A stretch of 63,511 nt of DNA, the filler included. It is 8 parts of 8 records of this genome, joined end to end, with 100 filler letters (N's around TTAATTAATTAA, not from the genome) between each part and the next. Parts side by side here need not be neighbours in the genome. Positions count along the whole stretch, not along the records: positions 8,632 to 15,210 come from SRR31147125_1813; 7 more parts are not named here. One strand, given 5' to 3'. The position numbers were made by a program, and so were the translations under genes. Positions 43 to 50,811 of this stretch are shown one piece after another. Within the stretch, counting starts at the first letter, position 1. The number at the start of each line of letters is the position of its first letter. The notes below the pieces were generated by a model. The model saw only the letters and a list, made by a program, of their open reading frames with translations, did not search any database and was not told where the DNA came from.

Positions 43-3000
43 CTAAAACGAATTAATCCTCACCTCAATCTCATTCACTCCCGGCTCCAAACGAACCGTT
101 CCGAACGATAAATTAACGGTTTCACCATTCAGACTAACAACTGCTGTTTTCGGGAAATCCATTTCAAATTCGGCCACCATATTTGCAGGCAGTTCAATTT
201 TGTATTTTGAAAGACGATTACTCATTTTTTGATAATCGCCTTTAATCTGTCCGCGGATTGTAGGAACCACAATGGAACTGTTTTTCAGGCTTGCCATTTG
301 TGGTTTTATAATGGCTACTCCATATCCCGGAGTTTTAGGCTGAATTCCCCACAAATAACGCGGAACAATGTTAGCCGGCGCTGCTCCCCATGCATGGTTC
401 CAATCTGAATTCGGTTTATATTTCATATCCCAGGCTTCCATGGTAATGGTAGAGCCAACTTTAATCATGTTGAACCAACTACGGTCGTTCGTGGCAGTCA
501 TTAATTCCAGGGCATAATCGGCGGCACCGGCATTGTACAAGGCTTCCATTAAAAACTGTGCGCCGTAAACACTGCATCCCATTCCGCGTGTTTTTATGTA
601 ATCGGCCACCTTTGTTTTATAAGCATCAGGCACAATTCCAAATGCCAGTGGAAGCATGTTTGAATGAATAGCTCCGTGCTCGGTTTCAATGCCGTCTTTG
701 TAAAAACCTTTTTCTTTGTTGAACAGTAATTCATTCATCGATTTTTTCACTCGTGCAGCGCGCATTTCAAAATCGAGAGCCTCCTCAGATTTATTCAGAA
801 CACGGGCAAATTCAGCCATAATTTTCATGTTCTGATAGAAGAAACTATTGATTACTGTGCTTACCGGAGTAAATACAAAACCATCGCGCTCGCCTTGTGG
901 CCAGTCTTTGGGTAATTTCCAACCGGTGTCTTTTTGTGCAGGTGGCCAGTCAACAATATCGCGAACCCGCTGTGTAGTATCGGCAAAACCTAATTTAGCC
1001 ATAAATTCACCATCCATTTTTGGCGATTTTGTGCTGATTAACCCCTGCTCGTATTCCAGCTCCATTAAGGTTTTATGTTTCAGCGGCTCGTAATATTTTT
1101 CAATCAGCTCAGTGTTTCCGGTGTACATATAATCGGCGTAAAACAACAAAGCCATGTGTAATTGCCACTCGGTTGGCCAGGTCGGAAAATCCATAAAATA
1201 TTCAATAGTTTTGCGGGCAATGGAATATTCATTATCCACACAATAATGGCTCAGCTGATTCAGGTATGCATCGGCTTCGTACGGAATACGTTCGCGGTCG
1301 CCATCGACATAATAACCGGCAAACGATGTTGCTTTTTGCGAATATTTACACAGTTCCCAAACCTGATTTAAAATGTCGTCGGAACTTGAAAACGAACTGC
1401 TTTCATCGTCGAAATAATTGAAATAGGCAACCTGGGTTAAATCATCGGCTTGCAGATTCTCTACGCACTCAACCTCGGCATAACGGAAAGGCAGAATAAC
1501 CGGAAAAGTGTCGGGCATAGCCACTGCCATTGATTTTGTGTTTCGTTTGTCGGGCACTAAATCAATCTGATACTCTTTTTTTCCGGGCGACACCTTTAAC
1601 TCAACTTCTGCCGAACGAATTGTTCCACCTGGTTTCATATCAACTTTCCCGTCCAATAATTTTTCGCCCAAACGAATAATTAATGTTTCTTCCTTTTTAG
1701 CCGAATAGTTGATATTTAAAGTTGCAAAAGCATCCTTCCCGAAGTCGGCAAAATAGCTTCCGTCGGTAACCTTTTTAAACGATATAGGTATTATCTTTTC
1801 AATCTGAAACCAGTTGTGCGAGCTTAATTTTTCGCCAAACGCACCGGTAGTAAATTGTTGTGGTTCCGAATATTCTGAAATACGATTGTCTTTGTCAAAA
1901 ATGCGTACTTCCCAGAAATAAGTTTTGTTCTCTTCCAATTCGACACCAATTTCCACGTCCGAAGATTGATTGCTGCGAACATTTCCACTGTTCCAAACAT
2001 CACCAATATTGTTATTAATATTTTGTTTCGATGATGCCACCAAAACCTGATATCCCTTTTGTAAAACCGCCTCTTGAGGTACAATCCAGCTTAGCTCTGG
2101 TTTGCTGTCGATAATTTTTGTTTTCTGCGGTTCGCGAATGTATTCAACGGTTAATCCCGAAGGAATACCCGAATACGGATCGGCAAATCGTTGTCCCAAT
2201 TCATCGTTTTTAGAGCGAAACTCTTCCAGCACTTTTTTGTACTTCGGATTATTGGCGAGGTTGTTTATCTCTTTCGGATCTTTCTTCAAATTATAAAGTT
2301 CCTCGATAGACTTATCGTTTACATAGCGCAAATATTTCCATTCGTTGGTACGTACTCCTTCGCTTGGCGGAATATTTTCGAATTCCCAAAGGTGCTCTAC
2401 CAAAATAGTATCGCGGCCAATTTTTTTTGCTTCTCCGGTAACAACCGGCTTCAAACTTTTCCCGGCATGTTTCAGGAATTTCAACTCCTGCAAAATCCAG
2501 AATTGTGGCCGGAACGTCAATATTCAATCCCATTTCTTCAATATCGCGGTGTTTATTTACACGCGGATCGTAAACAATTAACGGCGTACGAATTGAATTA
2601 TCGTACATCAACCATTTTCCTGAAATTTGTCTTTCTCCGAGGAAAAAACCATTGTCGCCCAGCAGGATAATTACGGTATTTTCATCCAGACCTTTTTCTG
2701 CCAGCTTTTTCCTAATTTTGAAAATCTCCAGGTCAACACCGTAAATCATTCGGTAATAACCCTTTGTGCTATGCTGGTATTTTTCGGGTGTATCGTTTTT
2801 CCAGAACCAACGTTCGCGGTTGAATCCATCTTTTACTATTTTAGGCAGTGCATCAAAATATTTATCGTCCGAAATATCGGCTTTGGGCATTTGCATGTCC
2901 TGGTAAAGTTTATCGGGTTCATCTTGCCAGAAATATTGCAGTGGCGCGCCATCGTGGGCATGAGGCGCACTAAAACATAACGACAAAGAAAATGGTTTAT

Positions 3001-3577
3001 CGCCTGGTGCATTATCGATAAAATCGAGCGCCTTTTGCCCGGTATAACGAGTAAGATGAACAGTGTCGCCATCGAGCATTTTGTAATTGTAACCGCGGTA
3101 ATCTTTGTATCGCCCGTTTCTGTCGTAAATTTCTACCTGATCGAACATTTTCTCTCTTCCCGGCGAATTCACTCCAAATTTCCCGTAAAAACCGGTGTAA
3201 TAACCTGCTTCTTTTAAAAGTTTCGGGTAAGCCACATCCATAAACTCACTTCTAATATTCCCGGTTTGGAAGGTGTATTTGTGTGTGCGTTCGTGCAGTC
3301 CGGTAAAAATACTCGAACGACTTGCCGAACAAATGGGTGTTGTTACCACTGCATTTTTAAAATAAGCACCGGCTTCGGCCAACTTATCCATTTCGGGTGT
3401 TGTTGCCAAAGGATTTCCGGCATAACCAAGTGCACTCCAACGCTGATCGTCGGTTAAAATAAAAATGATATTGGGCTTTTCGCCTGTAACTTTAGTCTTT
3501 TTCTGGCAGTTTGCCTTTTGTACATTTCCGAAGAAGAAAAGACTGATAATAAAAAATAAGACTGAAATTCGTTTCAT
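43..3577 (-). CDS. Sulfatase (S1) fused to GH78 alpha-L-rhamnosidase; one gene split by a 1-nt frameshift near 2460-2470
   Basis: ORF 2312..3577 has a signal peptide, [13 protein letters not shown] and the formylglycine motif [14 protein letters not shown] 43..2520 continues the sulfatase C-terminus (GKSLKP...[12 protein letters not shown]), then FN3-like and GH78 motifs ([24 protein letters not shown]). Confidence 0.85.
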
Positions 3578-3816
3578 TATAATATGGTTGAATTGGTTCT
3601 AAAACAAAGAAAAGTAATTAACAAATTTGTGCATCCCGCATTATCCTGTTTCAAATCAGGATAGTTAATCATTCACGCAGATAGCGCAGATACTCGCAGA
3701 TAAATCCTTTTTGATACTTGTTAGTCAATATTTTCATAATTCTTTTAAACCTATAATGTTCTAATTGATTGTATTAATTTCATTTTTGGTTATCCGAATA
3801 GTAAGATGATGTTTTG

Positions 3817-5205
3817 TCATTCCAACTTCTCAGGTTTCTCATAATCATTTTTCATTGTGTAAGGCAATTTCCAAATATTACCCTCAAAATCGCCAAAATA
3901 AAGTTCGCTTTTACTGAAATTGTGCGAATGTCCGTCGGCCCAAAAGAAACAAAATGGTGCTTTGCCATTAACAACTTTTCTAACGTAAGAATGGCTCATT
4001 TCACTATTTTGAGTGAGTTGTTTTTCTTTTTCCCATGTTATTCCATTATCCGAAGAAATCCAGATTGCCAATTCGCCACCAACTCCCCATTTCTGAGGGC
4101 CGGGCTCTGTAGGGCCAACAATTTTGCACACATTCTTTTCTATGAATAAACTTCCCATATCGTAATTATGGTCCGATTCGGTAATTACAACTGTTTGCCA
4201 ACTATCTCCATTCCACTTTGTAATGCACCATTCGTAAGGTTTGCTAACACCGCCGGGCATATGACCGTAACTTCTTATATACAAACAAACCGGATTTCCT
4301 GCCTCATCGAAAGCCATATCTTTCATGTAAACATTTTTGCTTTTCGACGCATAATCGACAGCGCGTGCAGGCGAATTTTGTAAGGTTACCGGAATTTTCA
4401 CTTCTGTTCCGTCAGCTGTGGTCCAGGTTTTTCCAAAGTCGGCTGTTTGCAGGTAATACAAATCGGTTCGGCGGTCTACAATTCCGTTAGGATGGCGATT
4501 AAAAAACGTTCCCAAAACTTTATCGTTATAGATATTACTGGTTTGGTAATGGCCCGATTTTTCACCCTCGTAAACCGGAATATCAGCTAACAGTTTATCT
4601 TCAGTCCAGTTAGTTCCGTCTTTACTCGTTTCGAAGTACAATTTTCGAACGCCTGTATATTTCGTAAAGAAATGGAAGTATCCCTGATCCGCATTCCAGG
4701 GTTGCGGGTAAGTCATTTCTTCTTCGGTAACTTTTTCAAACTCGTCGATATTTAATGGCTTTTTACTTCGGAGTTTAAAACCCATTCGACGCTGACCACG
4801 ACCACTCACAAACACCCAAATATAATCCTCATCGTCAATCATTATCGATGGATTATCGTGCGGATCGTTTACGCCATTTTTATCGTATACAACGGTTGGG
4901 TTCGATACCATCCCGGTTTTGTGGTCGTATTCGCCAATCATACAAAGCAGGTACTTTTCATTTTCGGCTTTTGTTCCGCCGTAAACATAAAAGGTTTTGT
5001 TGGCTTTTTCGGAATAAATGGCCAGCGGAACATGTTTTGCAGTGTAGGTTCCGAGTGCTCCGGAATATTTATCTCCATCGCGGTATTTTTGGCCGAGTTC
5101 GAACCAAATGGCGCGGTAGCCATCTGTTTTTTTATTGTTGAGGGATTGAGCGCTGGTAACCAGGTTTGATGTTAAGTATAAAAAAATTAGAATCAGGTAT
5201 CTCAT
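3817..5205 (-). CDS. Secreted BNR-4 repeat (beta-propeller) protein, possibly a polysaccharide lyase
   Basis: Signal peptide; DPHDNPSI and TYPQP motifs; Asp-boxes SKDGTNW, TADFGKTW, SSDNGITW. Confidence 0.7.
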   Translation of the reverse strand: MRYLILIFLYLTSNLVTSAQSLNNKKTDGYRAIWFELGQKYRDGDKYSGALGTYTAKHVPLAIYSEKANKTFYVYGGTKAENEKYLLCMIGEYDHKTGMVSNPTVVYDKNGVNDPHDNPSIMIDDEDYIWVFVSGRGQRRMGFKLRSKKPLNIDEFEKVTEEEMTYPQPWNADQGYFHFFTKYTGVRKLYFETSKDGTNWTEDKLLADIPVYEGEKSGHYQTSNIYNDKVLGTFFNRHPNGIVDRRTDLYYLQTADFGKTWTTADGTEVKIPVTLQNSPARAVDYASKSKNVYMKDMAFDEAGNPVCLYIRSYGHMPGGVSKPYEWCITKWNGDSWQTVVITESDHNYDMGSLFIEKNVCKIVGPTEPGPQKWGVGGELAIWISSDNGITWEKEKQLTQNSEMSHSYVRKVVNGKAPFCFFWADGHSHNFSKSELYFGDFEGNIWKLPYTMKNDYEKPEKLE

Positions 5206-5303
5206 AGTTGGTGCTTTTATTATCGTTTATAAATGCGGCTCATGCAACGGGTATTCTTTGTTCAACACAGAAGGATGAGCCTGTTTTATTATATTGTTGT
5301 TGT

Positions 5304-5350
5304 CCCCCGGTTAAAACCGGGGGTTATTCATATTAAACTCCTTCGGAGTT
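5304..5350. repeat. REP-like double hairpin
   Basis: CCCCCGGTT-AA-AACCGGGGG (5304-5323) and AACTCC-TTC-GGAGTT (5336-5350), just after the PL8 stop codon. Confidence 0.55.
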
Positions 5351-5355
5351 CTCCT

Positions 5356-7440
5356 TTATTTATCTCGATTTAATAGTAAAGTTACTGTTTTTCCTGCTTG
5401 TTCGTTTTGTGGTAGAGCAACTTTAATCTTTGTTTTTCCATCCTGTTGCAAGGTGTTTTCACCCGAATAGTTCCCGTTTAATGTGAGGGTAACTTCGTTT
5501 AATTTTTGTGTTGGTTCTGCCACCGAAAACTGTATTTCGTTTTCATGTTTTTTCACCATTACCAAACATGGTTCATTGGTTTCAATTCCGCCAAGAATAT
5601 TCGATTTACCGGCTTCATAAAAAACTATTCCGGCAATATTTCCATCTTTCGAAATCACTTCTTGCCTGTTCTTTTTATTGCTTATTTCAAAAGGCAGTTC
5701 CTTTTCCATTTCTTCCAAATCGGATTTTGTTGCATTCGGAACAAGCATGTATTCGTACGATGCATTTTCAGGATTTACGCCATGTTCGAAATACAGATTG
5801 AATATTTTAGATGAAATCCATTCTTTTGATAAAAGTACAGTTACGTCGGTCCATCTACCTTTTACTACATCGGTTTTTAAAGTCATTTCTGAAGCTTTCG
5901 GGAAAACATATCCAAGCTGATTGTGCAAAATCCACTTGTACTTTTTACTGTCCTTTTTTGTTTCAACCTCGCCATTTAAATATGTTTGATTAACCGATGT
6001 GGTAACAGGCAAATCTTCATCGGAATTTATGCCTGATCCCAAACAAACAATTTTATTGTTGAACATAAACCATGATTTTTTAGCAGATAAACCGAGGCGG
6101 TTGTAATCTAACACCGCAATTCCGTTTTTACCATCGGAAACGCCACCAACAAAATCGCTGGGAATACGATAACCACGCGATGTTAAAACCGGCAAAGGTT
6201 CCTCATCTTGTAAGGTTGTGGTTCCGGGTATTTTTTTCCAATCCCAAAACGGAAATATGTTTTTGTACTCTTTTCCTGTTTGATAAATATAAGTGGCACC
6301 GTCGCCAAGATAATATCCCTGAATATTTTCGGAATTGCACGACTCGGCACCAATTACCCGGTTTGAACTCATTTTTACTGAGAAAAAATAATCGGGCGTG
6401 CGTTGAATCTGAATGTCGGAACGCCAGAAATGTTTATTCCCGACCTGATTTTTATAATCGTTCGCTTTTGTATATTCTTCTGCAAAATCAGAATCGAGAA
6501 CTTCCATTTTCCTGAAATCGGCGGCCAGCTTTTCGGCTTTCTTTTGTGGATCATTGGGACCAATTTGCCGGCCACAGGAACTAATATCCATTTCATTTTT
6601 CCAGACTACCCATTGTTGTCCTTCCAAAAGATAATTGCGCAAAATTTCAACCTTACTCTCGTCGAATTTAAACTGTGTATTTCGTAAAATTGAAATCCAC
6701 TTTATCATATCGCCAATGTAAGAAAGGCCGTAGTTTCCAAATTGCAATTGCGGTCCGTGTTGGTGGTACGACCAATCGGGCTGAACACCTTCGCTGGTGC
6801 TAACCACCAACTCTTCTTTTATCGATGCACTAGCCTTTTCAATCATTTCAGCATTGCGGGTAAGTAAGGAGGTTAGCAAAACATTTCCCGATTGCCAGAC
6901 TTTATTTTGCCCGGTTCGCCCAATTTCGCAGCGGTTTAAAATGGGCATGGCTTTTTTAATCTGTTCCTCCGAAAGCTCGGGTTCCATTAAAAAAAGTGTA
7001 GGTAATAATTGCATAGGTGTACCTATTACCGGATGCCACCAATTGGGACTTACAAAATCATTATTAAGCCAATGATTTAATGCCGCATGGATTTTGATAG
7101 AAACCTCAGGTTTTTGATAAAATTCAGTCTTGGGATTTTGGTAGGCCTTTGCTATGGCCTCCATTCTGTTTAAATGAAAACGTGGCGACCAGTACCCACG
7201 TGTTTTACTCGGATAATCTACATCGGGCCAGGTTCCATCAACGGACAAATCACTCAATAACTGAGCGACTTCCTGAACATCAACATCTTCGTTTAAAAAA
7301 TAAGTAACTACATTTTTATGCAACTGCTGCAACTCGTCGGGATAAACTTTTGTATGTTCGAATAAAACCGGGGAAGTATTTTGGCTACATGCAGCAACTA
7401 CAAACAGACTAATTAATAGAAGGTAAAAGCAAGTTTTCAT
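5356..7440 (-). CDS. Polysaccharide lyase family 8 (chondroitin/hyaluronate lyase-like) lipoprotein
   Basis: Lipobox VAAC; NWWHPVIGTP, TGQN, EGVQPDWSYHQHGPQLQFGNYG, WDWKKIPGTT, AKKSWF motifs. Confidence 0.9.
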   Translation of the reverse strand: MKTCFYLLLISLFVVAACSQNTSPVLFEHTKVYPDELQQLHKNVVTYFLNEDVDVQEVAQLLSDLSVDGTWPDVDYPSKTRGYWSPRFHLNRMEAIAKAYQNPKTEFYQKPEVSIKIHAALNHWLNNDFVSPNWWHPVIGTPMQLLPTLFLMEPELSEEQIKKAMPILNRCEIGRTGQNKVWQSGNVLLTSLLTRNAEMIEKASASIKEELVVSTSEGVQPDWSYHQHGPQLQFGNYGLSYIGDMIKWISILRNTQFKFDESKVEILRNYLLEGQQWVVWKNEMDISSCGRQIGPNDPQKKAEKLAADFRKMEVLDSDFAEEYTKANDYKNQVGNKHFWRSDIQIQRTPDYFFSVKMSSNRVIGAESCNSENIQGYYLGDGATYIYQTGKEYKNIFPFWDWKKIPGTTTLQDEEPLPVLTSRGYRIPSDFVGGVSDGKNGIAVLDYNRLGLSAKKSWFMFNNKIVCLGSGINSDEDLPVTTSVNQTYLNGEVETKKDSKKYKWILHNQLGYVFPKASEMTLKTDVVKGRWTDVTVLLSKEWISSKIFNLYFEHGVNPENASYEYMLVPNATKSDLEEMEKELPFEISNKKNRQEVISKDGNIAGIVFYEAGKSNILGGIETNEPCLVMVKKHENEIQFSVAEPTQKLNEVTLTLNGNYSGENTLQQDGKTKIKVALPQNEQAGKTVTLLLNRDK

Positions 7441-7472
7441 TTTTTAAGTTTTTGGTCGGTTTAAAAAGTTTT

Positions 7473-7498
7473 AAAACCCCGGAGCTCTCTCCGGGGTT
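7473..7498 (-). terminator. Probable intrinsic terminator hairpin
   Basis: AACCCCGGAG-CTCT-CTCCGGGGTT, followed by a short T tract on the minus strand, downstream of the heparinase-like gene. Confidence 0.5.
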
Positions 7499-7521
7499 AC
7501 AAAAATGGAACTCCGTTGGAG

Positions 7522-8531
7522 CTATTTGGTAAACTCAAACGTCAAATTCTCACTGTCGGAAAACGGAATATTCAATTTCCACTTTCCTTTATTCTTGCAC
7601 AGAATTTCCAGTTTTATTTCATTTTCGTTTTTCGAAATAATTTTTGCTTTAACAGCAGGAATTTTCTTTTCAGCAGGAACAAGCAGCCAAACAAAGGTTT
7701 CGTCGCCATTAATTTTAGTTGAATGAAGTACCGCTTTGTTTGGACAAAATTTATTGTATTCCTCGCTGTACCAACCCTGAATTTCAGGTTCTTCCTGTCC
7801 TTCAATCACGTCAACTTCCCAATCGTCTTTTTCAACCGGAATTACAGCCAGGTTGCCGTTTTTATTATTTGTTGAAATTGTTCCGTTTTTGGAAACTTCC
7901 ACAGTACAATCGGGATGCCAGTGCCAAAGTGTTTCAATTTCTCTGGCTTGTTTGGTTTCGATACGATCTACAACCACCCAAAACTTATCGCGTACATACA
8001 TTAATGCTCGCTTGTGTTTCACATTTTTCAGGTCGTAATACTTATCAAAACAATTCCAGGCGTAATCGTACTCCGGTGTAATTTTCCAATGTTTTTCAGC
8101 TAGTGGCTCTTCAATAACTCTCACATCGGGCATTTGGCCTTTACCATCAATTAAAACCGAATTGTGTCCTTGTGTTCCTTTTGCATAAGAACGAAATTTT
8201 TCTGCTACCGCGCCGGTGTAGGCAAAACGTCCGGCATCTACCAGTAAATCTCGTCCATAGGCCGAAATAGAAATATGAAGCTTATCGTTGTGCTGGTGTC
8301 CGCTTCCCCATGGGCCAACATCGAACAACGACCAGTGTGCATCTTTTTCAAAGCCATTTCGTGAGATTAAATGCCCTGCCCAAGGGAAAAAATACGACGG
8401 GCCATTTTTTGGCTTCACACCCGATTTTCCGTTAGTGGCAATGAATTCCCATTCCGGCTTATTAAATTTCTGTGCTCCTCCCAAAATAAATTCCATATCC
8501 GAACCACGGTCACCATCGTTGTTCAAAGCCC
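7522..8531 (-). CDS. Heparinase II/III-like lyase, C-terminal part (5' truncated at contig end)
   Basis: GPWGSGHQHNDKL, LLVDAGRFAY, GHNSVLIDG, FWVVVDRI motifs; frame runs into the spacer. Confidence 0.85.
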
Positions 8532-9749: not shown

Positions 9750-9778
9750 TTGACATTTAAAATTACTGTAAATACAGT
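9750..9778 (+). promoter_or_regulatory. Sigma70-type promoter with an overlapping palindrome
   Basis: TTGACA (9750-9755), 17 bp, TACAGT (9773-9778); ACTGTA-AA-TACAGT overlaps the -10; GGAGG RBS at 9847-9851 before ATG 9859. Confidence 0.6.
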
Positions 9779-9858
9779 GACACTAAGAAATAAAGGAAAT
9801 CACCCCCATTTCCTTTCATATCACATCATAATCTGTCGTTATTGCGGAGGATATTGTT

Positions 9859-12800
9859 ATGGTTTACTCTTCTCGGAACCTAATTGCTAAAACTTTCTTT
9901 ATCATTTTGGTTGCTTGCTTTCTGGTTGGCTGTAAAGTCACAATAGTAAGCCCTCTCAGTGGTAGTGTTTTTGAACCTAATCAAGCTGTTTATTTTAAAG
10001 CTGAATTCAGTGGAACTGGGAATATTGCATGGAAAAGTGAGTACACCCAACCAGATGGAAGCAGACATACGCTTGATTCCAACTATTTCACTCAAAATGC
10101 TAAAAGTTTGGGACAAAAGGGTTTTCCATGGGAGTTTGAAATCAAAACCTTACCAAAAGGTAATCATAAAATCACCGCCTATAAAGGCAACGACAATGCG
10201 ACAACAACTATAAAGATCAATTCATTTTGTGAAAAAACAACGACCAATTGTGCCGTCTCTGGTGAATGTATCGAAGGATATTGCGATCTTACTGAAGATA
10301 AATGCAAAACAAGAAACAAAACGAACGGAACAGTTTGTAGCGATGGCAATCCGGCAACTCAAAACGACAGATGTGAAAATGGGACATGCATAGGAGAAAA
10401 CGTAGCTGAGTGTTCTCCAAACGACGGAATTTGCTGTGTTGATGGGAAGATTTCAAATGAAGGTGCTAATTGCCTAAATGACGGAAATGACTGCACAAAT
10501 GATGTTTGCAAACAAGGTGCTTGTGTTCAGGAAAATGTTTTGGCGGGTATAGCATGTGGAGATAGAGAAACAAGATTGTGTAGCGCGCCAGATGAATGCG
10601 ATGGTAACGGAGTTTGTGATCCAAGGCATTTCGATAATTCGATAATATGTAAACATTCTGCTGGTTTATGCGATGTTGTTGAGTATTGTGATGGTAATGG
10701 ATCATGTCAGGAAGACGGATTTAAGCCTTTAGGTGAAGTTTGCCGTACAGCAGGAAGTGAATGTGATGAGGAAGAATCATGTACCGGAGAAAGCCCGCTT
10801 TGTCCTGAAAATGTCTTTAAAGATGCTGGAGTTGAGTGTGGAAATAAAGAGGATAGCATCTGCGATGGAGCGGATACATGTGATGGTTCAGGTGAATGTC
10901 TGAACAACATTAGGCCTCAAGGAACAGTATGCAGAACTAATGGTACCAATGAATGCGATGTAGCAGAAGTTTGTGATGGGTTGGGACATTGCCCACCTGA
11001 TACATATGCTTTAGACGGCACTGAGTGTGATAATGGAACAAATCAATGTTTATCTGGTAGTTGTGTTGATTGTTTGGATATTTCAGGATGTGGAGACCTT
11101 CAGGATGATGGTCTGGAATGTAGCGAACCGGCATGTGACCAAACAACAAACCTTTGCTATCACAAATTGGATGCGCATGAAAACGAGGAATGTACAGATG
11201 ATGGCTTTACATGCACTGGCAACATTTGTAGTGCCGGTGGACAATGTGAATCAACCGTAAAACAGGGAAGTTGTTTGATTTCGGAACAATGCTATGACGA
11301 TAATTCTGTAAACCTAAGTAATCATTGCGAAATTTGCAACTCAGGATCAAGCCAAGATAGTTGGTCTATGGCTCAAGATGGATCAGTTTGTAATGAAGCC
11401 AACCAATGTCTTTCAGGTCAGTGTGTAGATTGTATCGACGATGATGGGTGTAGCGATCTTGCAGACGATGGACTTGAATGCAGTAAACCAGCCTGCAACT
11501 TTACTACAAATGAATGCTATCATGATTTATCAGCAAGTACCGGCAAACCATGTAATGATGATGGAAAATTTTGCACAATAAATTTATGTGAATCTGATGG
11601 AACATGTGGAGATAGTAATCTTCAGGAAGGAACATGTCATATCAATGATGTATGTTATGGACCAAACGAAAGAAATCCAGATCCAACTAAGCAATGCGAG
11701 GCTTGCATATCAGATTTGAGCACGACAGATTGGTCTACAGCTACTAATGACACATCATGTAATGATAGTGATCCATGTACAACAGCAGATCATTGTCAGG
11801 ATGGTGTTTGTATGGGTGGAGGACCCACTTGTACAGGTCAAAATGAAACATGTGATAATGGAACATGTAATTGTTCCGATGGGTATTTCCGAGAAAATGG
11901 AGTTTGTGTTGAAGATCCTTGTTATGGTGTAACATGCTCTTCCAATCAAATATGTCAAGGTGGCAATTGCATCTGCGATAGCTCTCAGGGATGGTATTCT
12001 GGAGCAAATCCGGGTACTTGTGAGTGTAATGCTTTAAGATATTGCTCTGATAGACGCTATAATTGCGGTGAAGTAAACCTACCTTGCGATAGTGGAAATC
12101 CTGTAAGTTGCGGTACATGCGATAGTGTTTCAGAATGTGGAACAGATAATCGTTGTCGTATTGTTGTTCAGCCTACGGAACCTGTAATTCAACCCAAAAA
12201 AGTTGCTCTTCCATATAACATTCACAATACAGCCAAACAAATTTACTCAGGAAACGATAAAGTTCAACACGGAGTAGATGAAGATAAAATTGACACAATC
12301 AGTAGTAGCATCATTAAAGGAAAAATAGAGCAGTCATGTGTAACTGGAAAATGTCCGTTAGCAGGTGTAAAAGTATCTATATTAGATCATGAAGAATATG
12401 GAGTTAGTCTTAGCAGGGATTGTGGAGAATTCGAAATTGTTGTAAATGGAGGAAGTAATCTTATTGTAGATTTTGCTCACAAAGACTACTATAGCACTCA
12501 AAGAAGAATAAAAATCAAACCGGGGAGTTTTAAGCGTTTGGAAAATGTAACTTTGGTCAAAATTGTGGAAGAGTCAACTCCTGTAAATCCATCTACTGCA
12601 ATAAATACCGAAGTTGTTAAAAGTGAATTAATCGCAGATAGCAGAGGAACCAGACAATCCACTTTATTGATTAATCCAGATACTGATGTGATTTTAACAT
12701 ATGAAGATGGCACTAAAAAACCAATTTTGGGAGAAATGAATATAAAAATAAGTGAATTTACTACAGAAGACAACGGTGAAGATTCAATGCCAGGAAATCT

Positions 12801-15210
12801 TCCAACAGCTACTCAATATACATATTGCGCGGAGTTTGATATTGAGGAAGCAAATAATCCAGGTGTTGTTAATACAGAATTCTCAAAACCTGTGTATGTG
12901 TATGTAGATAATTTTTTAGATTTTGAACTTGGTGCATCGGTACCATCAGGATATTACGATAAAAAGTCAGGAAAATGGAATTCTGCCGAAAATGGGATTG
13001 TAATAGGAGTTAAAGGTATAGAGAGCGATAAAGCTATAATATCTTTGGCAAAAAATTCTACTGGAGATATGCTGGATACGCCACAAGAATATCTGGATAA
13101 ATTTGGATTTACTGACAAGGAACTGGAAAAAATCGCAGATTTATATGGAGGGCAGATTGGAAAACCTTGTGGAGAATGCCGTTAAAACATTTTTCTACAT
13201 ATGATTTCAATCCTACAGTTGGACTTGGCGATTATATACCACCTGAAGAATCAATTGGTGGAGGAGGTTCAGGAAGCGATCCAGAAAATCAAACTGGAGG
13301 AGGTACTGCAGGTGGAAGTTCAGGTGGTGGAAGTTCAGGTGGTAATGGATCTGGAATAGGTTCAGGAGGAACTGCAGAAGGTGGCAATAGTGATACACCA
13401 GTTGAGGATCCATGTCTGAAAAAAGGCTCTATAATTGAGTGTGAGAATCAGGTTCTAGGTGAGACAGTGCCAATTACCGGAACGGATATGAGTTTGAATT
13501 ATAGAAGTGATAGAGTAATAGGAAGAAATGCTAGTAGAACTTTAAAAATACCTCTTGTAGGAACAAACGAATTACCGGAAGCACTTACAGGAATAAGCGC
13601 AAAGGTAACTATAGGGGGAGATGGTGTTTTTTATGAAAAACATGGTAGACTTGAACCAAAATCTTCTACAACTTTTGTATGGAATGGCAAGGATGGATAT
13701 GGAAATCAAATGCAATCGGAGCAGACTGCAAATGTAGAAATCTGTTATCATTATCCAAGAATGTGGGCTACTAATCAAACATGTATTGCAACCCAAAATG
13801 GGCAAATTGATTGCGATGAAAATGCTGTGGACCGTTTTGGAGCACCACAATATGACGATGGGTTCATACTCGTAAATTCCGATGAAGAGACAAAGCTATG
13901 CAATCAATATGAATACAAAATAGGTCAAATGGATTTAACCAAAATGAAACTTGGTGGCTGGTCAATTGACAATCATCATATTTATGACCCTTATTCAAGA
14001 ATTTTATACAAGGGAGATGGAACAAAGCGCTATGCAGACACTGAAAACAATAAAATTGTATATACTCACGCTGGAGTAGGAACAAAGTATAAAAATGATA
14101 AAAAAGGAGTTGTTGCAATTAGGGATTCAATGGGAAATCTTGTTATTCATGGTAGAAACTCCTACATGGAAATTTTAGGCGATATTTACTCAATAGTTGA
14201 GGATAATTTAGGTAATATATATTTCGTTGTAAAAGCACCTAAATACTACAATGATAGAGGCGAGCTTATTGAATCAGCTTCCTTTGATACATTATTCAAG
14301 TCATCAAGAAAAGGAGAGCTAACAAAAATTACATTGTACAACGACAATGGTATCGAGGTTGGAGTGCCGAAGGGAGAAGGTAGTGATCCTTGGCAAGCAA
14401 CTAATAAAATGTATATGTATAACAATAAAATATATATTGCTACAAATTCAGACTATCCTGACAGTATGGGTGGCCCAACATACCACAATGCACTAATTTA
14501 TGAGATTGAGTTAAACGATGGCGATACTGCAAAGAGTTCCATTTATGCTGGTGATGCTAACTCAAGAATTTATTCATCACTAGTTTATAAACCAGCAAAA
14601 TACAATAGATCCAAAAGTGATGGAATCTATGAAATAGAAGACATTGCCATAGATAGTGAAGGCAACGTATATTATTCTGATAACAATTATGTAAAGGAAG
14701 ATAATCATAGCGCAACGGCACTGTACAAAATTGAATCTTCGGGAATGATTAACTTATATCACGTATTTGATTACAAATCTATGGATAGATTTGATTTTGA
14801 TGGTCAGAACAATATTTATTACCATGAAAGAAACTGGCCGAACTACGAATTTAAAAAACTGGGAATTGACGGAAAAACGGCTTTGCTAGCTTCCGTTCCT
14901 ATGGATCCTTATGCAAAAATTTTAGATTTTATTGTTGACGATATTGGTATTATTTATTATTCACTTCAAAGAAATGTAGGAAACAAAACCTTTTATGATG
15001 TTCACAAGATTCTAGCAAACGGGACTGATTTAATTCTTGCTGGTAATCCTGAATCAAGCGGACAGGAATATGATATTAGTAAAGACGATGGGACTTCTCC
15101 AATTGGAAAGGATTTAGGAAAAATTGTTGGATTAATGTTAAGCAAATCTGAAGAGTTATTTTTTGTTTCTGGTAATAACAAAATGCTTCAATCGATTAAT
15201 CCTTCTTTAC
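9859..15210 (+). CDS. Giant Cys-rich lipoprotein with a teneurin-like core (TTR/carboxypeptidase-like, FN-plug, NHL); frameshift at 13161-13164; 3' truncated
   Basis: Lipobox LVGC; about 650 aa of Cys-rich repeats; PLAGVKVSILDHEEYGVSLSRDCGEFEIVVNGG, QVLGETVPITGTDMSLNYRSDR, TFVWNGKDGYG and LGGWSIDNHHIYD...LYKGDG resemble teneurin segments. One extra A joins the two ORFs as GKTLWRMPLKHFS. Confidence 0.8.
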
Positions 15211-24878: not shown

Positions 24879-24906
24879 GTTGAGACGCGATGAATCGCGT
24901 CTTTAC
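24879..24906. repeat. GTAG-type REP-like hairpin between hsdM and hsdS
   Basis: GTTG-AGACGCGAT-GA-ATCGCGTCT-TTAC; overlaps the hsdM stop codon. Confidence 0.6.
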
Positions 24907-26336
24907 CGGAGGGCTTCGGTTAGTACATTAATAATTTCGTCTTGTATGCTGCTGATTTTGCTTTCGCTTCTGCGGAATTGTTCCAGAATTACTTCAGGAC
25001 TGGCTAAATCGTTGCTTTCCTGATGTGGGTTTTTTATATCCAGATTAAAATTGCGGCTTTTTATTTCATCGGCTGATACTTTCCATGCATGTTTGGCATA
25101 TTTCTCGTTTTCGCGATCTGTCCACCATGCTTTTTCTAAATCGAACTCTTTAATGTTAATGGGCTTGCCCTTGTTATAGCTTTTTACGCCATTAGGATAA
25201 GGGTGTTCAAAATACCAAATGTCTTTAGTGGGTGTTCCTTTCTCGAAAAACAAAAGGTTGGTTTTAATACCTGTGTAGGGATTGAATACCCCATTGGGCA
25301 ATCGTACAATGGTATGCAGATTACAACGTTCCAGCAGTTCTTCCTTAATGCGTGTTTTTACCCCTTCGCCAAATAAAGTACCATCGGGCAAAACTACAGC
25401 ACATCGTCCGCCATCTTTAAGTAAACGAATAATGAGTGCTAAAAACAAATCGGCTGTTTCTTTGGTGCGGAACTTTTGCGGAAAATTAGTTTCTGTTCCA
25501 TCTTCTTCCACACCACCAAATGGAGGATTGGTCAATACAATGTCTAATTTATCTTGCTCCCCAATCGCTGTACGGTTTGCTCAATAAGTTATCGCGCCTT
25601 ACGGCAGGTACATCAAAACCATGCAGCATAAGGTTGGTGGTGCAAAGCAAGTGAGGCAAAGGTTTTTTCTCTACCCCGTTAATTGAAGTATGAAACGTTT
25701 TACGTTTTTCTGGCGTGTTTACCTGTTCTTTCAGATGGTCGATACTGCAAACTAAGAAACCGCCTGTACCGCAAGCTGGGTCTAAAATACTTTCGCCCAA
25801 TTGCGGATTGGTAATATCCACCATAAACTGCGTTACCGCTCTTGGCGTATAATACTCACCCGAAGAACCTGCACTTTGCAGTTCTTTAAGAATAGTTTCG
25901 TAAATGTCGTTAAACAGGTGTCGCTCATTGGTATTGTTAAAATCAATTTTGTTAATCTCGTTTACTACCTGACGGAAAAGTGTTCCGTTTTTCATGTAGT
26001 TATACGTGTCTTCAAATACCGAACGAATAATTTTAGCCTGTGGGCTAATGGTAATATCCATTTCCTTGAGGGCAGGAAACAGTTCGTTGTTCACGAAATC
26101 CATTAGTTGGTCGCCTGTTAATCCTTCGTCATTGGCTGCCCAGCTATCCCATTTAAAGTTATCGGGTATTGGGCTTGCGTAATCATCTATGGTAATTTCC
26201 CATTCTTCTTCCTTATCCGAAAAATCTTCATGAATAACATCCACACCATTTGCGATATGCGCTGCGCGTCTCCGTCTACTCCCGTATCTTTCCGCATAAT
26301 ATCGCGGATGGCTTTTATGTTTGTTGTAATTGACAT
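24903..26336 (-). CDS. hsdM: Type I R-M N6-adenine methyltransferase (frameshifts near 26225 and 25555)
   Basis: MSITTNIKAIRDIMRKDTGVDGDAQRISQ start; GEYYTPRAVT, ILDPACGTGGFL, TNPPFGG, VFNPYTGIKTN. Confidence 0.93.
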
Positions 26337-35145: not shown

Positions 35146-35814
35146 TGGTTTAACGAGGCTGTTACCCTTTTGAATGAAAATCCAACCATTGATGTAGGCA
35201 TTCATTTAACGCTTACCAGCGAATGGGTAAATTATAAATGGAAACCAATTACTTCATGTAATTCAATTACCGACGAACAAGGGAATTTTTATCCCTGGGT
35301 TTGGCCGGTCAAAAAATATCCGGGACAATCGATAAAAGAGGCATCGGGGGATATAGATGAGATAGAAAAAGAATTGCGTGCTCAAATTGAACTGGCATTG
35401 AAGAAAATCCCACAAATAAGTCACATGACCGATCACATGGGATGCCTTGGGCTTTCTGATGAACTGAAGCAACTGGGTGAAAAGCTTTCTGTCGAATATG
35501 GCTTACCACTTTATTTTGATGATTATGAGTTGCAAAGGGCACCCCGTTGGAGTGGCAATAAGTTACTGGGGCAGAGGGAAGAAAAGCTTTGTGAAATGCT
35601 GGAAGAATTATTGCCGGGAACGTGGCTAACAGTGGAGCATCCGGCCTATGGTTACCCCGAGATGCAAACAATTGATGGAAAGGGAATTGTTGCCAAAAAT
35701 CGTCAGGAAGTGGTGGACGTATTTACAAGCAAAAAAGTAGAGAATAAAGCAAAGAATAACAATGTAAAGCTCATTTCTTATAAAGAATTGATTTCAATGT
35801 TTTCTGATAAATAG
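35146..35814 (+). CDS. YdjC/ChbG family carbohydrate deacetylase (5' truncated)
   Basis: DVGIHLTLTSEW, ELRAQIE, SHMTDHMG, EHPA. Confidence 0.85.
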   Translation, partial: WFNEAVTLLNENPTIDVGIHLTLTSEWVNYKWKPITSCNSITDEQGNFYPWVWPVKKYPGQSIKEASGDIDEIEKELRAQIELALKKIPQISHMTDHMGCLGLSDELKQLGEKLSVEYGLPLYFDDYELQRAPRWSGNKLLGQREEKLCEMLEELLPGTWLTVEHPAYGYPEMQTIDGKGIVAKNRQEVVDVFTSKKVENKAKNNNVKLISYKELISMFSDK

Positions 35815-35833
35815 AAAATCAAAATCGAAAAGA

Positions 35834-38101
35834 ATGAAGTTAAAAATTATATGGACATTGAATAAGACTCAGAAAGGAAGTACAGTTATTTCTTTTATTC
35901 TAAAAAAAGTGGCTTACCTGAGTTTTGTTGTTGGCATACTTTTGTTTCCAATTTGTAGCTCCTCACAATCGGCAGCATATTCAACATGGTTTGCATTTAA
36001 TCCTGATGAAGATTATTCCGAAAGTGTAATAAGCACATCTTCATGGCTTGATGCTCCGGCAGGTAAACATGGTTTTCTTCAAATGAATGGCGACGAGTTG
36101 GTTTTTGAAGATGGAACACCGCTAAAGTTTTGGGGAGTTAATATTAGCAGTCAGCGTGCATTTGCAGATAGAAGCGATGTGGATTTATGGATTAAGAACC
36201 TATCGAAGTATGGAGTAAATGGTGTTCGTTTTCACAAATTTACAAAATATGGTTACAAAGAGGGAGCTTCAACTAAGCTTGATGAAGATAAGTATAAGAA
36301 GCATGACTATTTTTTATCCGAACTTAAACAGGCAGGAATCTATTACGGGTGGTCTCATATTTATGGTCATAAAGTAAAACCAGAGGATAGTGACAAGCTT
36401 CTGAATTACGATGAAATTGCTAATCTGACTTATCCATGGAGCCATCTAAATGGTACTACTTCCAGTTTGGTAAATTTTGCCCCCGATTTACAGGATTTAA
36501 GTATTGACTTAACCATAAATATGCTTAATCGTGTGAATACAGTAACAGGAAAACCAAATGCTCAAGACCCGGCATTGGCTTTTATTGAATTGCAAAACGA
36601 AGATAATATTTTCTGGGGGCCAATTGAAAAATCATTAAAACAGGCGCCAAGCTATCGAAAATTATTATGTAAGCAGTTTTCTAATTGGCTAAAGAATAAA
36701 TATAACAATCAGAAAGAGCTGCAAAAGGCATGGGGAAAAAATAATATTCCTGAAGGAGAAAGCCTTGAACAAGGCAATATATATCCTGCTCCGAATCACC
36801 ATAAGTTTTCAGTAGAGTACGAAAGGTCGATAAGTGAGGACAGACCAATGCAACAACATTTTGTGGATAAAATGGAGTTTCTGTACGAAAAGCAGATGGA
36901 GTTTTACGAACGCTTTGTTGTTGCTATTCGGGAGACTGGTTATAAGGGAATAATTGTAGGCTCATGTTGGCAAGCTGGTCATGGCCCATCACACTTTTAT
37001 AATTTGCTTGCAGATTACAACACCGGAATTATCGACCGTCATAACTATTGGGGAGGAGGAACCGGACACCGTATGGAACGCGGAACCATTAAAACACAGG
37101 CAATGGTTTCGGAACCAGGTATTGGTTTACTTAGTACAGGGATGCAACAGGTAGCTGACAGACCATTTTCAATTTCGGAATGGATAAGCAAGATACCTAA
37201 CGAATGGGTAGCTGAAGGCGTACCTATTGTGGCAATGTATGGAATGGGATTGCAGGGTTGGGATGCCTCATTTCAGTTTGGAAGCGATTTGCCGTATTTC
37301 TCGGAAACAATACATACTCCGGGCGTTTATAATATCTCTTCTCCCACGCAAATGACGCTTTATCCAGCCATTTCAAGAATGATTTATCGCAATGATATTG
37401 AAGAAGGGAAATTGGTCTCAATACGAAATATTGCTTTGGATGATTTGAAAGAAGGAGAATTGGGATTTAAAGAATACATTAAACAGGGATATGATGATAA
37501 GAATATAAGCGGAGATGTTCCGGCTGCATCATTGGCGGTTGGAAAAGCCGTTGTAAACTTTTCGGATGTACCAATGAAAACTACTTTGCCAAACCTGGAT
37601 AAATTTTGGAACAAAGAAGAAAAACGGATTAAATCGAATACCGGACAGCTCTTCTGGGATTATTCAGATAAAGGTTTTTTTACGCTCAATACCGATTTTA
37701 CTAAAGCAGCTGTTGGATTTGTGGGAGGGGAAGAACTTCTATTTAAGAATCTGGGAATGAAGATTAAAACACCTTTTGCCATAGTGATAGTTACCCCGCT
37801 TGAAAAAGACAAAAACTTTAAATCATCGAAACATTTATTGCTCACAACAGTGGCAAGGGCAATGAATACCAATATGAAACTTAATAGTGAACGAAATGAA
37901 GTATTAGATACTGGAGAAGCACCTATATTATTAGAACCAGTAAAACTGCATCTTTCATTAAAACGTAGTGGGAATCCTACTGTACATGTACTGGATCATG
38001 TTGGAAGAAGGACAGGGAAAACGATTCCAGTGACCGATAAAAAGGTCATAATAGATGGGCGAAGTACTCAGGCTATCTACTATGAAATTGAATATCAATA
38101 A
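35834..38101 (+). CDS. Exported clan GH-A (GH5-like) glycoside hydrolase
   Basis: APAGKHGF, KFWGVN, GVNGVRFH, ELQNED (acid/base), HNYW, ISEW (nucleophile). Confidence 0.65.
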   Translation: MKLKIIWTLNKTQKGSTVISFILKKVAYLSFVVGILLFPICSSSQSAAYSTWFAFNPDEDYSESVISTSSWLDAPAGKHGFLQMNGDELVFEDGTPLKFWGVNISSQRAFADRSDVDLWIKNLSKYGVNGVRFHKFTKYGYKEGASTKLDEDKYKKHDYFLSELKQAGIYYGWSHIYGHKVKPEDSDKLLNYDEIANLTYPWSHLNGTTSSLVNFAPDLQDLSIDLTINMLNRVNTVTGKPNAQDPALAFIELQNEDNIFWGPIEKSLKQAPSYRKLLCKQFSNWLKNKYNNQKELQKAWGKNNIPEGESLEQGNIYPAPNHHKFSVEYERSISEDRPMQQHFVDKMEFLYEKQMEFYERFVVAIRETGYKGIIVGSCWQAGHGPSHFYNLLADYNTGIIDRHNYWGGGTGHRMERGTIKTQAMVSEPGIGLLSTGMQQVADRPFSISEWISKIPNEWVAEGVPIVAMYGMGLQGWDASFQFGSDLPYFSETIHTPGVYNISSPTQMTLYPAISRMIYRNDIEEGKLVSIRNIALDDLKEGELGFKEYIKQGYDDKNISGDVPAASLAVGKAVVNFSDVPMKTTLPNLDKFWNKEEKRIKSNTGQLFWDYSDKGFFTLNTDFTKAAVGFVGGEELLFKNLGMKIKTPFAIVIVTPLEKDKNFKSSKHLLLTTVARAMNTNMKLNSERNEVLDTGEAPILLEPVKLHLSLKRSGNPTVHVLDHVGRRTGKTIPVTDKKVIIDGRSTQAIYYEIEYQ

Positions 38102-38302
38102 GATTAAATATAGAAAAGAGAATACCATCGGTTTAATTCTAACAACATTGTGTTGGGGTTTACTTTTAACTCGTTACGATGCTCAAGGGCGCAAATTTCT
38201 GGACCTACAATAAAACTTCACGATTAACTGTTGTGCCAGACCATGTGTGCAAATAAAATATGAAGTAAAAGATAAGATTTTAATCAACCTAAAAACAATA
38301 TT

Positions 38303-39097
38303 ATGAAACGCTTTAATTTTCTGGTTACAACACTTGCTATTTTTATTTTTTCATTTGGAATTGTAACAGCGAGTAATACAAGTAATGAAAAAACAGTAAA
38401 AATATTAACCATTGGAAATAGCTTTGCAGATAACGCGTGTACATATCTAACGCAAATTGCAGAATCAGTTGATGGGTGCAATATTATTATTGAAAAAGCC
38501 AATATTGGAGGATGTTTTTTAGAAAAGCATGCCAATTTGATAAAAAAATGTGAGCAGGATCCTTTATTCAAACCGTATATGGAAAAGTATTCTCTCAAAG
38601 ATTTATTGTTGAAAGACAACTGGGATGTTGTTACTATTCAGCAAGTTAGTAATCTTAGTTTTATTGCAGAAACCTATCATCCTTATGCTGATGAAATTGT
38701 TGCCTCTATAAAAAAGCATGCACCTCAAGCTCAAATATATATTCATGAAACCTGGGCTTATGCCCCCGATTGTCAGCGTTTGGAAGCATTGGGAGTTTCA
38801 AGGGGCAAAATGCATAAAAGATTGAAAAAGAATTATAAAGACTTAGCAAAGGATTTTAATGCCCCAATTTTACCTTCCGGAAATGCATTTTATACTGCCT
38901 ATAAACGAGATTCTAAAATCGACTTATGGAACTCAAAGGATCGGTTTCATGCTAATTCAAATGGTTGTTTTTTAGCCGGATGTGTTTGGTTCGGTAAACT
39001 ATTTGATGTTTCGCCCAAAGAAGTACAATTTATACCTAAAGAGATGGATGCTTCAACAGCTGAATTTTTAAAAAAGATTGCTGATAAAACGAATTAG
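38303..39097 (+). CDS. DUF4886 / SGNH-like esterase
   Basis: Signal peptide; KILTIGNSF, WDVVTIQQVS, HETWAY, DRFHA. Confidence 0.75.
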   Translation: MKRFNFLVTTLAIFIFSFGIVTASNTSNEKTVKILTIGNSFADNACTYLTQIAESVDGCNIIIEKANIGGCFLEKHANLIKKCEQDPLFKPYMEKYSLKDLLLKDNWDVVTIQQVSNLSFIAETYHPYADEIVASIKKHAPQAQIYIHETWAYAPDCQRLEALGVSRGKMHKRLKKNYKDLAKDFNAPILPSGNAFYTAYKRDSKIDLWNSKDRFHANSNGCFLAGCVWFGKLFDVSPKEVQFIPKEMDASTAEFLKKIADKTN

Positions 39098-39186
39098 AAA
39101 GTAAGTGGAACTGCCACAAGAAATTCAGGCAAGTTCTGGAATGTAATATAAATAATTAGAAAGCTAGTAATTATATTTTTTTGACG

Positions 39187-40416: not shown

Positions 40417-40492
40417 GCAGTACGATTTTAAGGGTAAATGAGATTATTCGAAATATTAAATTATAAGTTAACAGACTATTAGTCAATTAATA

Positions 40493-41404: not shown

Positions 41405-41563
41405 AATAATTTTAGTGTGATACTTAGCTCGTTATTATAAGATCTTTTTTAAATAAGTGTTCGACAGATAGATAAGGTAAAGTATAGAAAGAGAATTACT
41501 TGATAAGTTAGAACTGGAAATTATTTCTATCTACTCTGTTGGGCATTTTTAAATAAAAAATAC

Positions 41564-50328: not shown

Positions 50329-50811
50329 ATGGATTCAGAAAAATTTAAAGAATATCTTGAAAAAAGATATTACGACCAGCTAAATTACTATAGAAATTCA
50401 TCGGGCAAGAACCGGAAAAAATATAAGAGTTTTCAATGGGTATTAATTATTCTTTCTGCTATTACACCTGTGCTGGCCGCAATGCATGGCGAGAAACTTA
50501 ATACTCAGTTTGTTGTTGTAATTATTTCAGCCATTGTTGCCATATTAACGTCCGGCCTTAAAACGTTCAAATACCAGGAATTGTGGGCCAGTTATCGCGC
50601 CACTTATGAGCAACTAAAACCAGAAATATATTATTATAATTATAATGTTGGCCCTTATGGTGAACCTGAAGTTAATAAGGAATCTTTGTTTATTTCCAGA
50701 GTAGAAGCAATTTTGGATAAAGAGCACCAGGGATGGCCGCCTGCCCAAAAGCTTCGTGAGGACAAAGATAACCCCGATACAATTTTGGGTGAAGATAGAA
50801 AGCAGCCTTGA
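50329..50811 (+). CDS. DUF4231 / SLATT-like two-TM protein
   Basis: YLEKRYYDQLNYY...KYKSFQ, two TM helices, KYQELWASYRATYEQLK.E, FISRVEAIL..EH..W. Confidence 0.8.
   Translation: MDSEKFKEYLEKRYYDQLNYYRNSSGKNRKKYKSFQWVLIILSAITPVLAAMHGEKLNTQFVVVIISAIVAILTSGLKTFKYQELWASYRATYEQLKPEIYYYNYNVGPYGEPEVNKESLFISRVEAILDKEHQGWPPAQKLREDKDNPDTILGEDRKQP

Follow-up and report, generated by a model that had tools for sequence, protein, structure and literature searches.

A divergent bacterial teneurin-like protein with a long cysteine-rich stalk, truncated by the end of its contig

Introduction

Bacterial teneurin-like proteins (TLPs) are defined, in the main text of Raoelijaona et al. 2026 (PMC13018210), by a superfold of FN-plug, NHL propeller and YD shell, and were reported there from 139 genomes in six phyla. 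According to the same text, Gram-negative TLPs carry SEC/SPII lipoprotein signals, their N-termini hold "diverse adhesion domains", the teneurin insertion protein (TIP) domain occurs in 96% of TLPs, and the C-terminal domains are toxic, lie inside the shell and are followed downstream by immunity genes. The main text of Jackson et al. 2019 (PMC6425310) lists beta-sandwich repeats 5' of the TTR domain. Here we describe a truncated TLP gene in a 63,511-nucleotide stretch of DNA (the window, whose positions are used throughout), which is made up of eight contigs with runs of N and a TTAATTAATTAA linker between them. The gene starts at 9859 on the second contig (8632-15210, 6.6 kb) and is read as two open reading frames (ORFs), ORF1 and ORF2; we refer to its product as the 9859 protein.

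The nearest solved structure by sequence is that of the Bacillus inaquosorum TLP (BiTLP; 9ifo, 9pt5; PMC13018210), which has the same order of TTR, TIP, FN-plug and NHL domains. However, the Gram-positive BiTLP has an SPI signal and Ig-like N-terminal domains, whereas the 9859 protein combines a lipobox with a 643-residue Cys-rich stalk, and it further differs in its long Gly-rich linker and in a propeller undetected by the Pfam NHL models. Metazoan teneurins (6fb3, 8r54, 8fia) possess homologous TTR, FN-plug and NHL domains and share the design of a tether, a disulfide-rich spacer and a superfold, but they are type II membrane proteins that possess, besides a cytoplasmic domain, eight EGF repeats and a MopE-like motif, none of which was found in the 9859 protein, and most of them are without the TIP domain that is present here. 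In the case of the Tc toxin TcB-TcC and the Rhs effectors of the type VI secretion system, the principle of a YD-shell toxin cocoon with self-cleavage is shared, as outlined in the main texts of PMC6425310 and PMC13018210, but these proteins have neither FN-plug nor TTR and rely on TcA or VgrG/PAAR for delivery; PAAR, VgrG-binding and SpvB/TcB N-terminal domains gave no Pfam match at E<=0.1 in either ORF.

Results and Discussion

Overall organization of the gene

ORF1 (9859-13185, 1108 aa) runs from the ATG at 9859, and ORF2 (13167-15209, 681 aa), in another frame, overlaps it by 19 bases and is still open at the contig end. We regard the two ORFs as the N-terminal ~1,790 residues, or the front 60%, of one gene for a bacterial TLP, that is, a surface-displayed polymorphic toxin carrier, with a probability of roughly 0.85. 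From the N-terminus, the product comprises an SPII-type lipobox, an Ig-like domain, the 643-residue stalk, TTR, TIP, a Gly-rich linker, the FN-plug and a six-bladed NHL-type propeller (Table 1), and the assignment to the TLPs is sound for every feature within the contig. ORF2 matched 2,059 cluster representatives at E<=1e-10, and all 150 of the matches listed ran through the FN-plug region. The contig ends, at the last propeller blade, where the relatives continue with LPGF...GRHL and the YD shell.

A first-pass annotation of the window had already proposed a teneurin-like lipoprotein with an LVGC lipobox, an Ig-like segment, about 650 aa of Cys-dense repeats, and TTR-like, FN-plug and NHL segments, cut off before the YD shell. 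All of these were recovered, the Ig-like segment with a reservation: it has two matches to bacterial Ig domains (Pfam Big_7, E 0.01, 16.9 bits against a cut-off of 24.1; PDB chain 9kvu, E 0.062), both of them below threshold. The TIP domain, a hallmark of bacterial TLPs, was missing from that list.

Table 1. Features on the contig that carries the TLP gene (window positions; residues numbered in ORF1 unless ORF2 is named)
Feature	Position	Strand	Evidence
DUF3631 gene, 3' part, cut by contig start	8684-9070	+	Pfam DUF3631, 79.2 bits, cut-off 24
Sigma-70-like site TTGACA-17-TACAGT	9750-9778	+	10/12 matches
Shine-Dalgarno-like GGAGGA	9846-9851	+	7 nt 5' of ATG at 9859, read from sequence
Predicted signal peptide MVYSSRNLIAKTFFIILVACFLVGC with lipobox L22-V-G-C25 (lipobox 9922-9933)	9859-9933	+	Translation, pattern only
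Probable bacterial Ig-like domain (residues 26-123)	9934-10227	+	Two sub-threshold matches
Cys-rich stalk (residues 124-766; 643 residues, 90 Cys)	10228-12156	+	Cys count
Five ~31-residue disintegrin-like 4-Cys repeats (residues 226-382)	10534-11004	+	Repeat layout, Pfam Disintegrin
Two tandem ~120-residue Cys-rich modules (residues 383-633)	11005-11757	+	Pairwise comparison
Two EGF-type Cys spacings (residues 651-721), hint only	11809-12021	+	Shuffle test, weak model
Teneurin-type TTR domain (residues 815-898)	12301-12552	+	Pfam TTR_TEN1-4, 55.3 bits, cut-off 27; 57.9 on sub-region
TIP domain, across the frame break	12553-13226	+	Alignment to 9ifo/9pt5, motif
A-run with one-base frame shift	13161-13164	+	Sequence; four A's in the window
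Gly/Ser-rich linker (ORF2 residues 31-78)	13257-13400	+	Translation; pLDDT below 50; similar in P0147
FN-plug (ORF2 residues 79-295)	13401-14051	+	phmmer to 9ifo/9pt5 and teneurins
Divergent six-bladed NHL-type propeller (ORF2 residues 296-681), contig ends at last blade	14052-15209	+	Custom profile, blade motifs, model

TTR, TIP and FN-plug domains

The Pfam teneurin TTR match is well above its cut-off, and the TTR and TIP domains align together, ORF1 residues 776-1097 lying on residues 360-672 of BiTLP (9ifo/9pt5) with E 4.6e-47. The end of the TIP domain falls in ORF2, where LWRMPLKHFSTYDFNP fits the consensus LWRVPxxHFxPWDxNWP. The strings that had pointed to an FN-plug lie within ORF2 residues 95-285, and phmmer places residues 79-310 on residues 715-939 of the 9ifo/9pt5 chain with E 3e-32; against 16 teneurin sequences, E-values ranged from 2.6e-11 (fly teneurin) to 5.8e-8.

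The self-cleavage site of the BiTLP FN-plug is reported in the main text of PMC13018210 as G723|S724. Residues C83, G87 and S88 of ORF2 align with C719, G723 and S724 of BiTLP, and in an alignment of 26 sequences S88 is invariant and G87 is at least 90% conserved. The Cys and the Gly-Ser pair of the putative self-cleavage loop are thus conserved.

NHL-type propeller and structural model

We built a custom NHL profile from 62 TLP NHL regions, which scored the propeller at 20.8 bits (E 5.5e-9 for a single target); none of 500 shuffled sequences reached this score, the highest being 4.9. Six blade motifs can be recognized. For the AlphaFold2 model of ORF2 we used a clean 26-row TLP alignment; an alignment with full-length homologues was discarded since it stretched the query over the YD shell, and another, of fragments, served for the locus scan only. 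The mean predicted local distance difference test score (pLDDT) of the model is 63.4, and most propeller blocks reach 70-89. Comparison with teneurin structures, which had been suggested earlier as a check, gave a likeness to teneurins: the 13 best PDB chains in Foldseek are 12 teneurins and the bacterial TLP, with E-values from 2e-19 to 7e-15. With VIA-align, teneurins superpose with Z 24.1-27.1 over 391-434 residues, and the NHL-type propellers Pizza6, PknD, Brat and TRIM2 with Z 21.6-23.5 and a root-mean-square deviation of 2.4-3.4 over residues 292-681.

Several points weigh against this assignment. Pfam FN-plug_TEN1-4, TEN_NHL and NHL have no match in the ORFs or their sub-regions, and hhalign aligns the propeller with 16 TLP NHL regions only weakly (E 0.0042, probability 8%). 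The FN-plug part of the model has middling confidence, and since the model alignment was drawn from TLPs, its likeness to teneurins is not fully independent and serves as support rather than proof. In the window there is neither a YD shell (tblastn of two YD shells gave E 0.78 at best) nor an RHS core, a toxin or an immunity gene, so that the toxin role is drawn from the family alone. No close relative of ORF2 was found among the genome contigs or metagenome contigs searched.

Proposed display and the possibility of a non-toxic receptor

The N-terminus has the pattern of a 25-residue cleavable lipoprotein signal, with a positively charged n-region, a hydrophobic core and LVGC at residues 22-25, instead of a type II transmembrane anchor with a cytoplasmic domain. 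On this pattern, the protein would be lipidated at C25 and then attached at the cell envelope, where it is predicted to be surface-exposed. The stalk, oxidised to a stiff rod, would hold the head of TTR, TIP and superfold off the cell surface, as proposed for the stalk of TraA of Myxococcus, and the head would then meet neighbouring cells. By family likeness, as described in the main text of PMC13018210, the lost 3' part would encode a YD shell closed by the RHS core, the RHS core would cut off a small C-terminal toxin kept inside the shell, and an immunity gene would follow the TLP gene; the toxin would be freed in response to some trigger.

In TraA, as outlined in PMC6372800, tandem Cys-rich repeats are proposed to act as a stalk showing the head on the cell surface. 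TraA differs in its PA14-like head and its MYXO-CTERM sorting tag, and it is no YD-shell protein. That analogy stems from a recognition receptor, and it could be argued that the 9859 protein is a non-toxic adhesin or kin-recognition receptor as well, in which the superfold is a binding head only, as in animals, with no active toxin; the toxin part would lie beyond the contig end, and the main text of PMC13018210 leaves open a TLP role in cell-to-cell communication. We consider this improbable, since self-cleavage motifs, toxic C-termini and immunity genes are the rule in TLPs and the FN-plug cleavage residues are retained here.

Frame break at the A-run

The first-pass annotation had treated the two ORFs as one gene with a frame shift to be repaired, and the single gene is supported. 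The only independent contig across the A-run (Logan) has one A more, at depth 3.1 of 3.1, and this added A joins ORF1 and ORF2 in one frame. Neither the full-length homologues nor the fragments that span the site are interrupted at this position. The frame shift is therefore probably an assembly error at low coverage. On the other hand, the extra A is seen in a single contig that possibly comes from the same sample as the window. That contig belongs to a public sequencing run, X1, which contains 67% of the sampled words of the TLP stretch and may itself be the source of the window; its coverage of the gene is 1.4-5.5x where covered, with 9884-10251 and 15036-15210 uncovered. A second run, X2, contained nothing of the stretch. 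Because of this low depth and possible common source, we rate an intact single gene across the A-run as likely rather than certain.

If the one-base shift were genuine, the gene would be a pseudogene, and the product would be a 1,108-residue lipoprotein with the stalk, the TTR and most of the TIP domain, leaving the superfold untranslated. The shift is present in the window sequence itself, neither assembly is secure at the X1 coverage given above, and the gene adjoins a DUF3631 fragment, a setting in which, we infer, decayed accessory genes are common. Yet the extra A is present in the one independent contig over the site, ORF2 reads on without a stop for 681 codons up to the contig end, with its conserved motifs, and no homologue is split at this position, which makes a pseudogene unlikely. 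At 12160, where the window reads A, G stands in an X1 contig (at depth 3 and 41 bases short of the contig end); this may be a strain difference or an error.

Cysteine-rich stalk

Counted over 652 residues from residue 124, the 90 cysteines of the stalk amount to 13.8%, the first being C124 and the last C766, and ORF2 contains only 6. Scanned alone, residues 124-399 match Pfam Disintegrin (PF00200) in four stretches with 46 bits against a cut-off of 35.1; the best stretch spans only positions 36-75 of the 75 in the model, and the whole protein scores 23.5 bits against the same cut-off. As judged from these profile matches, the predicted repeat is a disintegrin-like Cys repeat and not an ADAM-type domain.

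The two ~120-residue modules that follow are identical at 60 of 117 positions (51%, E 4e-35). This module is rare, occurring in only three other proteins of 609-1939 aa, one of which (P0351) is a lipoprotein with a different head. A role of the stalk as a spacer is suggested by this occurrence in another lipoprotein and by the Cys-rich modules 5' of the TTR domain in 22 of 194 TLPs (see below). The homologues of the stalk carry Pfam Disintegrin and Dicty_CTDC.

Relation of the stalk to the teneurin ectodomain

The stalk had been called animal-like at first, and the protein was taken to copy the animal layout and perhaps to bear on teneurin origins; neither idea was upheld. Searched alone against PDB, stalk residues 124-639 gave no chain at E<=0.1, and residues 640-815 gave no teneurin, the sole match being one EGF chain with E 0.27. 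No Pfam EGF family matched in the ORFs or their sub-regions, and the teneurin Cys-rich (MopE-like) motif ExxCx(D/N)xxDx(D/E)xD...CC was not found in the stalk. Since the stalk has no signal of homology to teneurins, the likeness is one of design, consisting of a tether, a disulfide-rich spacer, a TTR domain and a superfold, and amounts to an analogy at most; this gene leaves the account of how teneurins arose unchanged.

Some hints of an EGF relationship exist in the last part of the stalk. Two EGF-type Cys spacings occur (0.49 +/- 0.65 in shuffled sequences), but 75 of 1000 shuffles also reach two, so this is not significant. An EB module match (E 0.0011) is below the Pfam cut-off, and a single-sequence model of residues 620-780, with a pLDDT of 58.7, has tandem-EGF proteins in its top Foldseek rows at weak E-values of 0.013-0.05, none at E<=0.001. 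Together with the single EGF chain, these hints could be taken as signs that the stalk is homologous to the EGF or Cys-rich region of teneurins, the gene being akin to the donor of the teneurin ectodomain, or of animal origin. All of them are below significance, however, and the stalk alone matches no teneurin and has no MopE-like motif; the bacterial TLP is a far nearer match for the conserved parts of the protein than teneurins are, both the lipobox and the TIP domain are traits of bacteria, and the at least 15 changes estimated for Cys-rich stalks on a weakly supported FastTree tree of TLPs speak for shuffled modules. We regard such homology or animal origin as very improbable and keep to a bacterial TLP whose stalk resembles that of teneurins in design.

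A more far-reaching idea is that bacterial TLPs used the combination of a lipid tether, a disulfide-rich and partly EGF-like stalk, TTR and superfold before teneurins did, the stalk being a true structural counterpart, and perhaps a relative, of the teneurin EGF region, which might dimerise the protein in cis like the teneurin EGF repeats. If so, the animal ectodomain layout would have been inherited or copied and not invented by fusion in eukaryotes; we regard this as a very long shot.

The teneurin Cys-rich motif has been proposed to come from a diatom or alga, according to the main text of Tucker et al. 2012 (PMC3278476). One TLP gene of our locus scan (L069, 51-5759 of MGRJ01000019.1, from the metagenome-assembled genome Deltaproteobacteria bacterium RIFCSPHIGHO2_02_FULL_40_28) has two Pfam Cu-binding_MopE motifs (61.4 bits, cut-off 27) directly 5' of the TTR domain, which is the position of the teneurin Cys-rich motif. 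In phmmer this protein is collinear with Teneurin-3 from the MopE motif through the TTR domain (E 1.1e-17), but its Cys-rich part alone matches MopE only (E 9e-4) and no teneurin. By motif search, the MopE-like motif is rare among TLPs, being present in one of 28 loci and one of 48 representatives (P0112).

Distribution of cysteine-rich modules among TLPs

We surveyed the N-termini of 194 TLPs that align to the TTR-TIP part of the 9859 gene, as had been proposed before, and counted as Cys-rich those with at least 10 Cys per 150 residues 5' of the TTR domain. By this measure 22 of the 194 have a Cys-rich module, but four of the 22 were found via the stalk itself, so the unbiased count is 18 of 190; about one surveyed TLP in ten has such a module before the TTR domain. 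A lipobox with Cys-rich repeats and TTR through YD shell is found in Sorangium cellulosum So ceGT47, in Polyangium sp. and in the metagenome proteins P0031, P0136 and P0223. P0031 (2828 aa) contains a lipobox, seven Dicty_CTDC stretches, TTR, TEN_NHL and the YD shell. In a search based on the stalk, TTR_TEN1-4 was present in six of the 77 long proteins listed, and four of these six also had Disintegrin or Dicty_CTDC.

A scan of species genomes by pattern gave 322 candidate stretches, 296 of which encode relatives, and these belong to many phyla. Among the best 80 genome loci, five have at least 12 Cys in some 200-residue window 5' of the match, and two of the five belong to the cultured myxobacteria Sorangium cellulosum So ceGT47 (L043) and Polyangium sp. 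y55x31 (L032), both with a lipobox; Dicty_CTDC scores 38.1 bits in the former and 26.6 bits in the latter, at a cut-off of 27. Compared with the 9859 protein, the Sorangium and Polyangium TLPs have short stalks of about 120-190 residues and P0031 has a stalk of similar length with a different repeat type; all three are 26-32% identical to the 9859 protein, whose gene is AT-rich and probably from candidate division KSB1. One of the 80 loci (L023, DATKKD010000039.1) is titled as a Thermoplasmatota archaeon metagenome-assembled genome, and an archaeal TLP would be unexpected.

On the FastTree tree mentioned above, the 15 or more changes of the Cys-rich trait were counted among 160 rows of known state. 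The Cys-rich modules are scattered over the tree, from which it follows that stalks are swapped in and out. The 9859 protein has a branch of 1.44 against a median of 0.37 (weak support, odd composition) and is at most 38% identical to any tree row; against about 1.8 billion cluster representatives its identity is at most 39%, and the matched stretches are all in the FN-plug region.

The layout is therefore less special than the first-pass annotation had held: TLPs, SPII signals and variable N-terminal modules are published in the main text of PMC13018210, and similar stalked lipoproteins were found here. In its architecture, the protein is a divergent case, with a long stalk, of a variant found repeatedly among TLPs. 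Cys-rich stalks are unmentioned in the main texts of PMC13018210 and PMC6425310, although the supplementary module list for the 139 genomes may show them, and our literature search found no paper linking teneurin with disintegrin, myxobacteria and cysteine-rich repeats. With this gene the TLPs gain a very divergent member, which probably comes from the uncultured phylum KSB1, and the range of N-terminal display modules is extended from the beta-sandwich repeats of the published main texts to a 643-residue, 90-cysteine rod, which is of use as background for how TLPs are presented on cells.

Upstream region

The DUF3631 fragment at the contig start, for which a PHROGs search gave no match, is separated from ORF1 by an AT-rich spacer of 788 bases. 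A sigma-70 promoter and a Shine-Dalgarno sequence had been offered as arguments that the gene is prokaryotic. The GGAGGA before the ATG is present, and a prokaryotic origin agrees with a teneurin-like protein that has a lipoprotein signal and with the TIP domain and lipobox as bacterial traits. The promoter argument fails: the region contains five sigma-70-like sites against 5.8 +/- 2.4 in shuffled sequences, and since this count is within the shuffle range, the site is no evidence by itself. At 9754, inside the -35-like hexamer, one contig of the X1 run ceases to match the window and continues with 156 unrelated bases, no copy of which occurs elsewhere in the window; the break, which may mark a strain variant, could also be an assembly tip at the border of the DUF3631 element. 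NCBIfam searches of both ORFs and five sub-regions gave no match, and the whole window gave no Rfam match and no tRNA (ARAGORN).

Host and other contigs of the window

The TsaC protein encoded in the window has four organism-named matches at 68-72% identity, three from candidate division KSB1 and one from Calditrichaeota, which makes a bacterium of candidate division KSB1 the probable host. KSB1 presumably corresponds to Zhuqueibacterota. A literature search on RHS proteins in this group gave one paper, the listing of which does not name RHS. The tetranucleotide correlation of the TLP contig with the other seven contigs is 0.63-0.87. Against this host assignment, TsaC lies on another contig of the same record, and the correlations of the TLP contig are the second-lowest of the eight.

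Genes for the degradation of glycosaminoglycans and other polysaccharides are dense in 43-8526 and 35170-43099, including sulfatase, PL8 lyase, heparinase II/III, rhamnosidase, GH88, a sialate O-acetylesterase-like SASA domain and DUF4886. In 43-2520, an SGSH_C sulfatase tail precedes rhamnosidase domains in the same frame, in an ORF that overlaps the one for sulfatase at 2312-3577; the fusion may be another frame shift of the low-coverage assembly. Similarly, a type I restriction-modification methylase (N6_Mtase) at 24903-26244 is divided between two adjoining ORFs, with positions 2-120 of the Pfam model in 25549-26244 and 130-306 in 24903-25535, which has the look of either a one-base error in the assembly or a broken gene.

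The contig at 44128-50811 encodes, in one direction, an nSTAND1 NTPase (46047-47738), an 862-residue WD40 protein (47735-50323) and a SLATT/DUF4231 effector with two transmembrane segments (50329-50811), and this set looks like a STAND system of the conflict or defence type.

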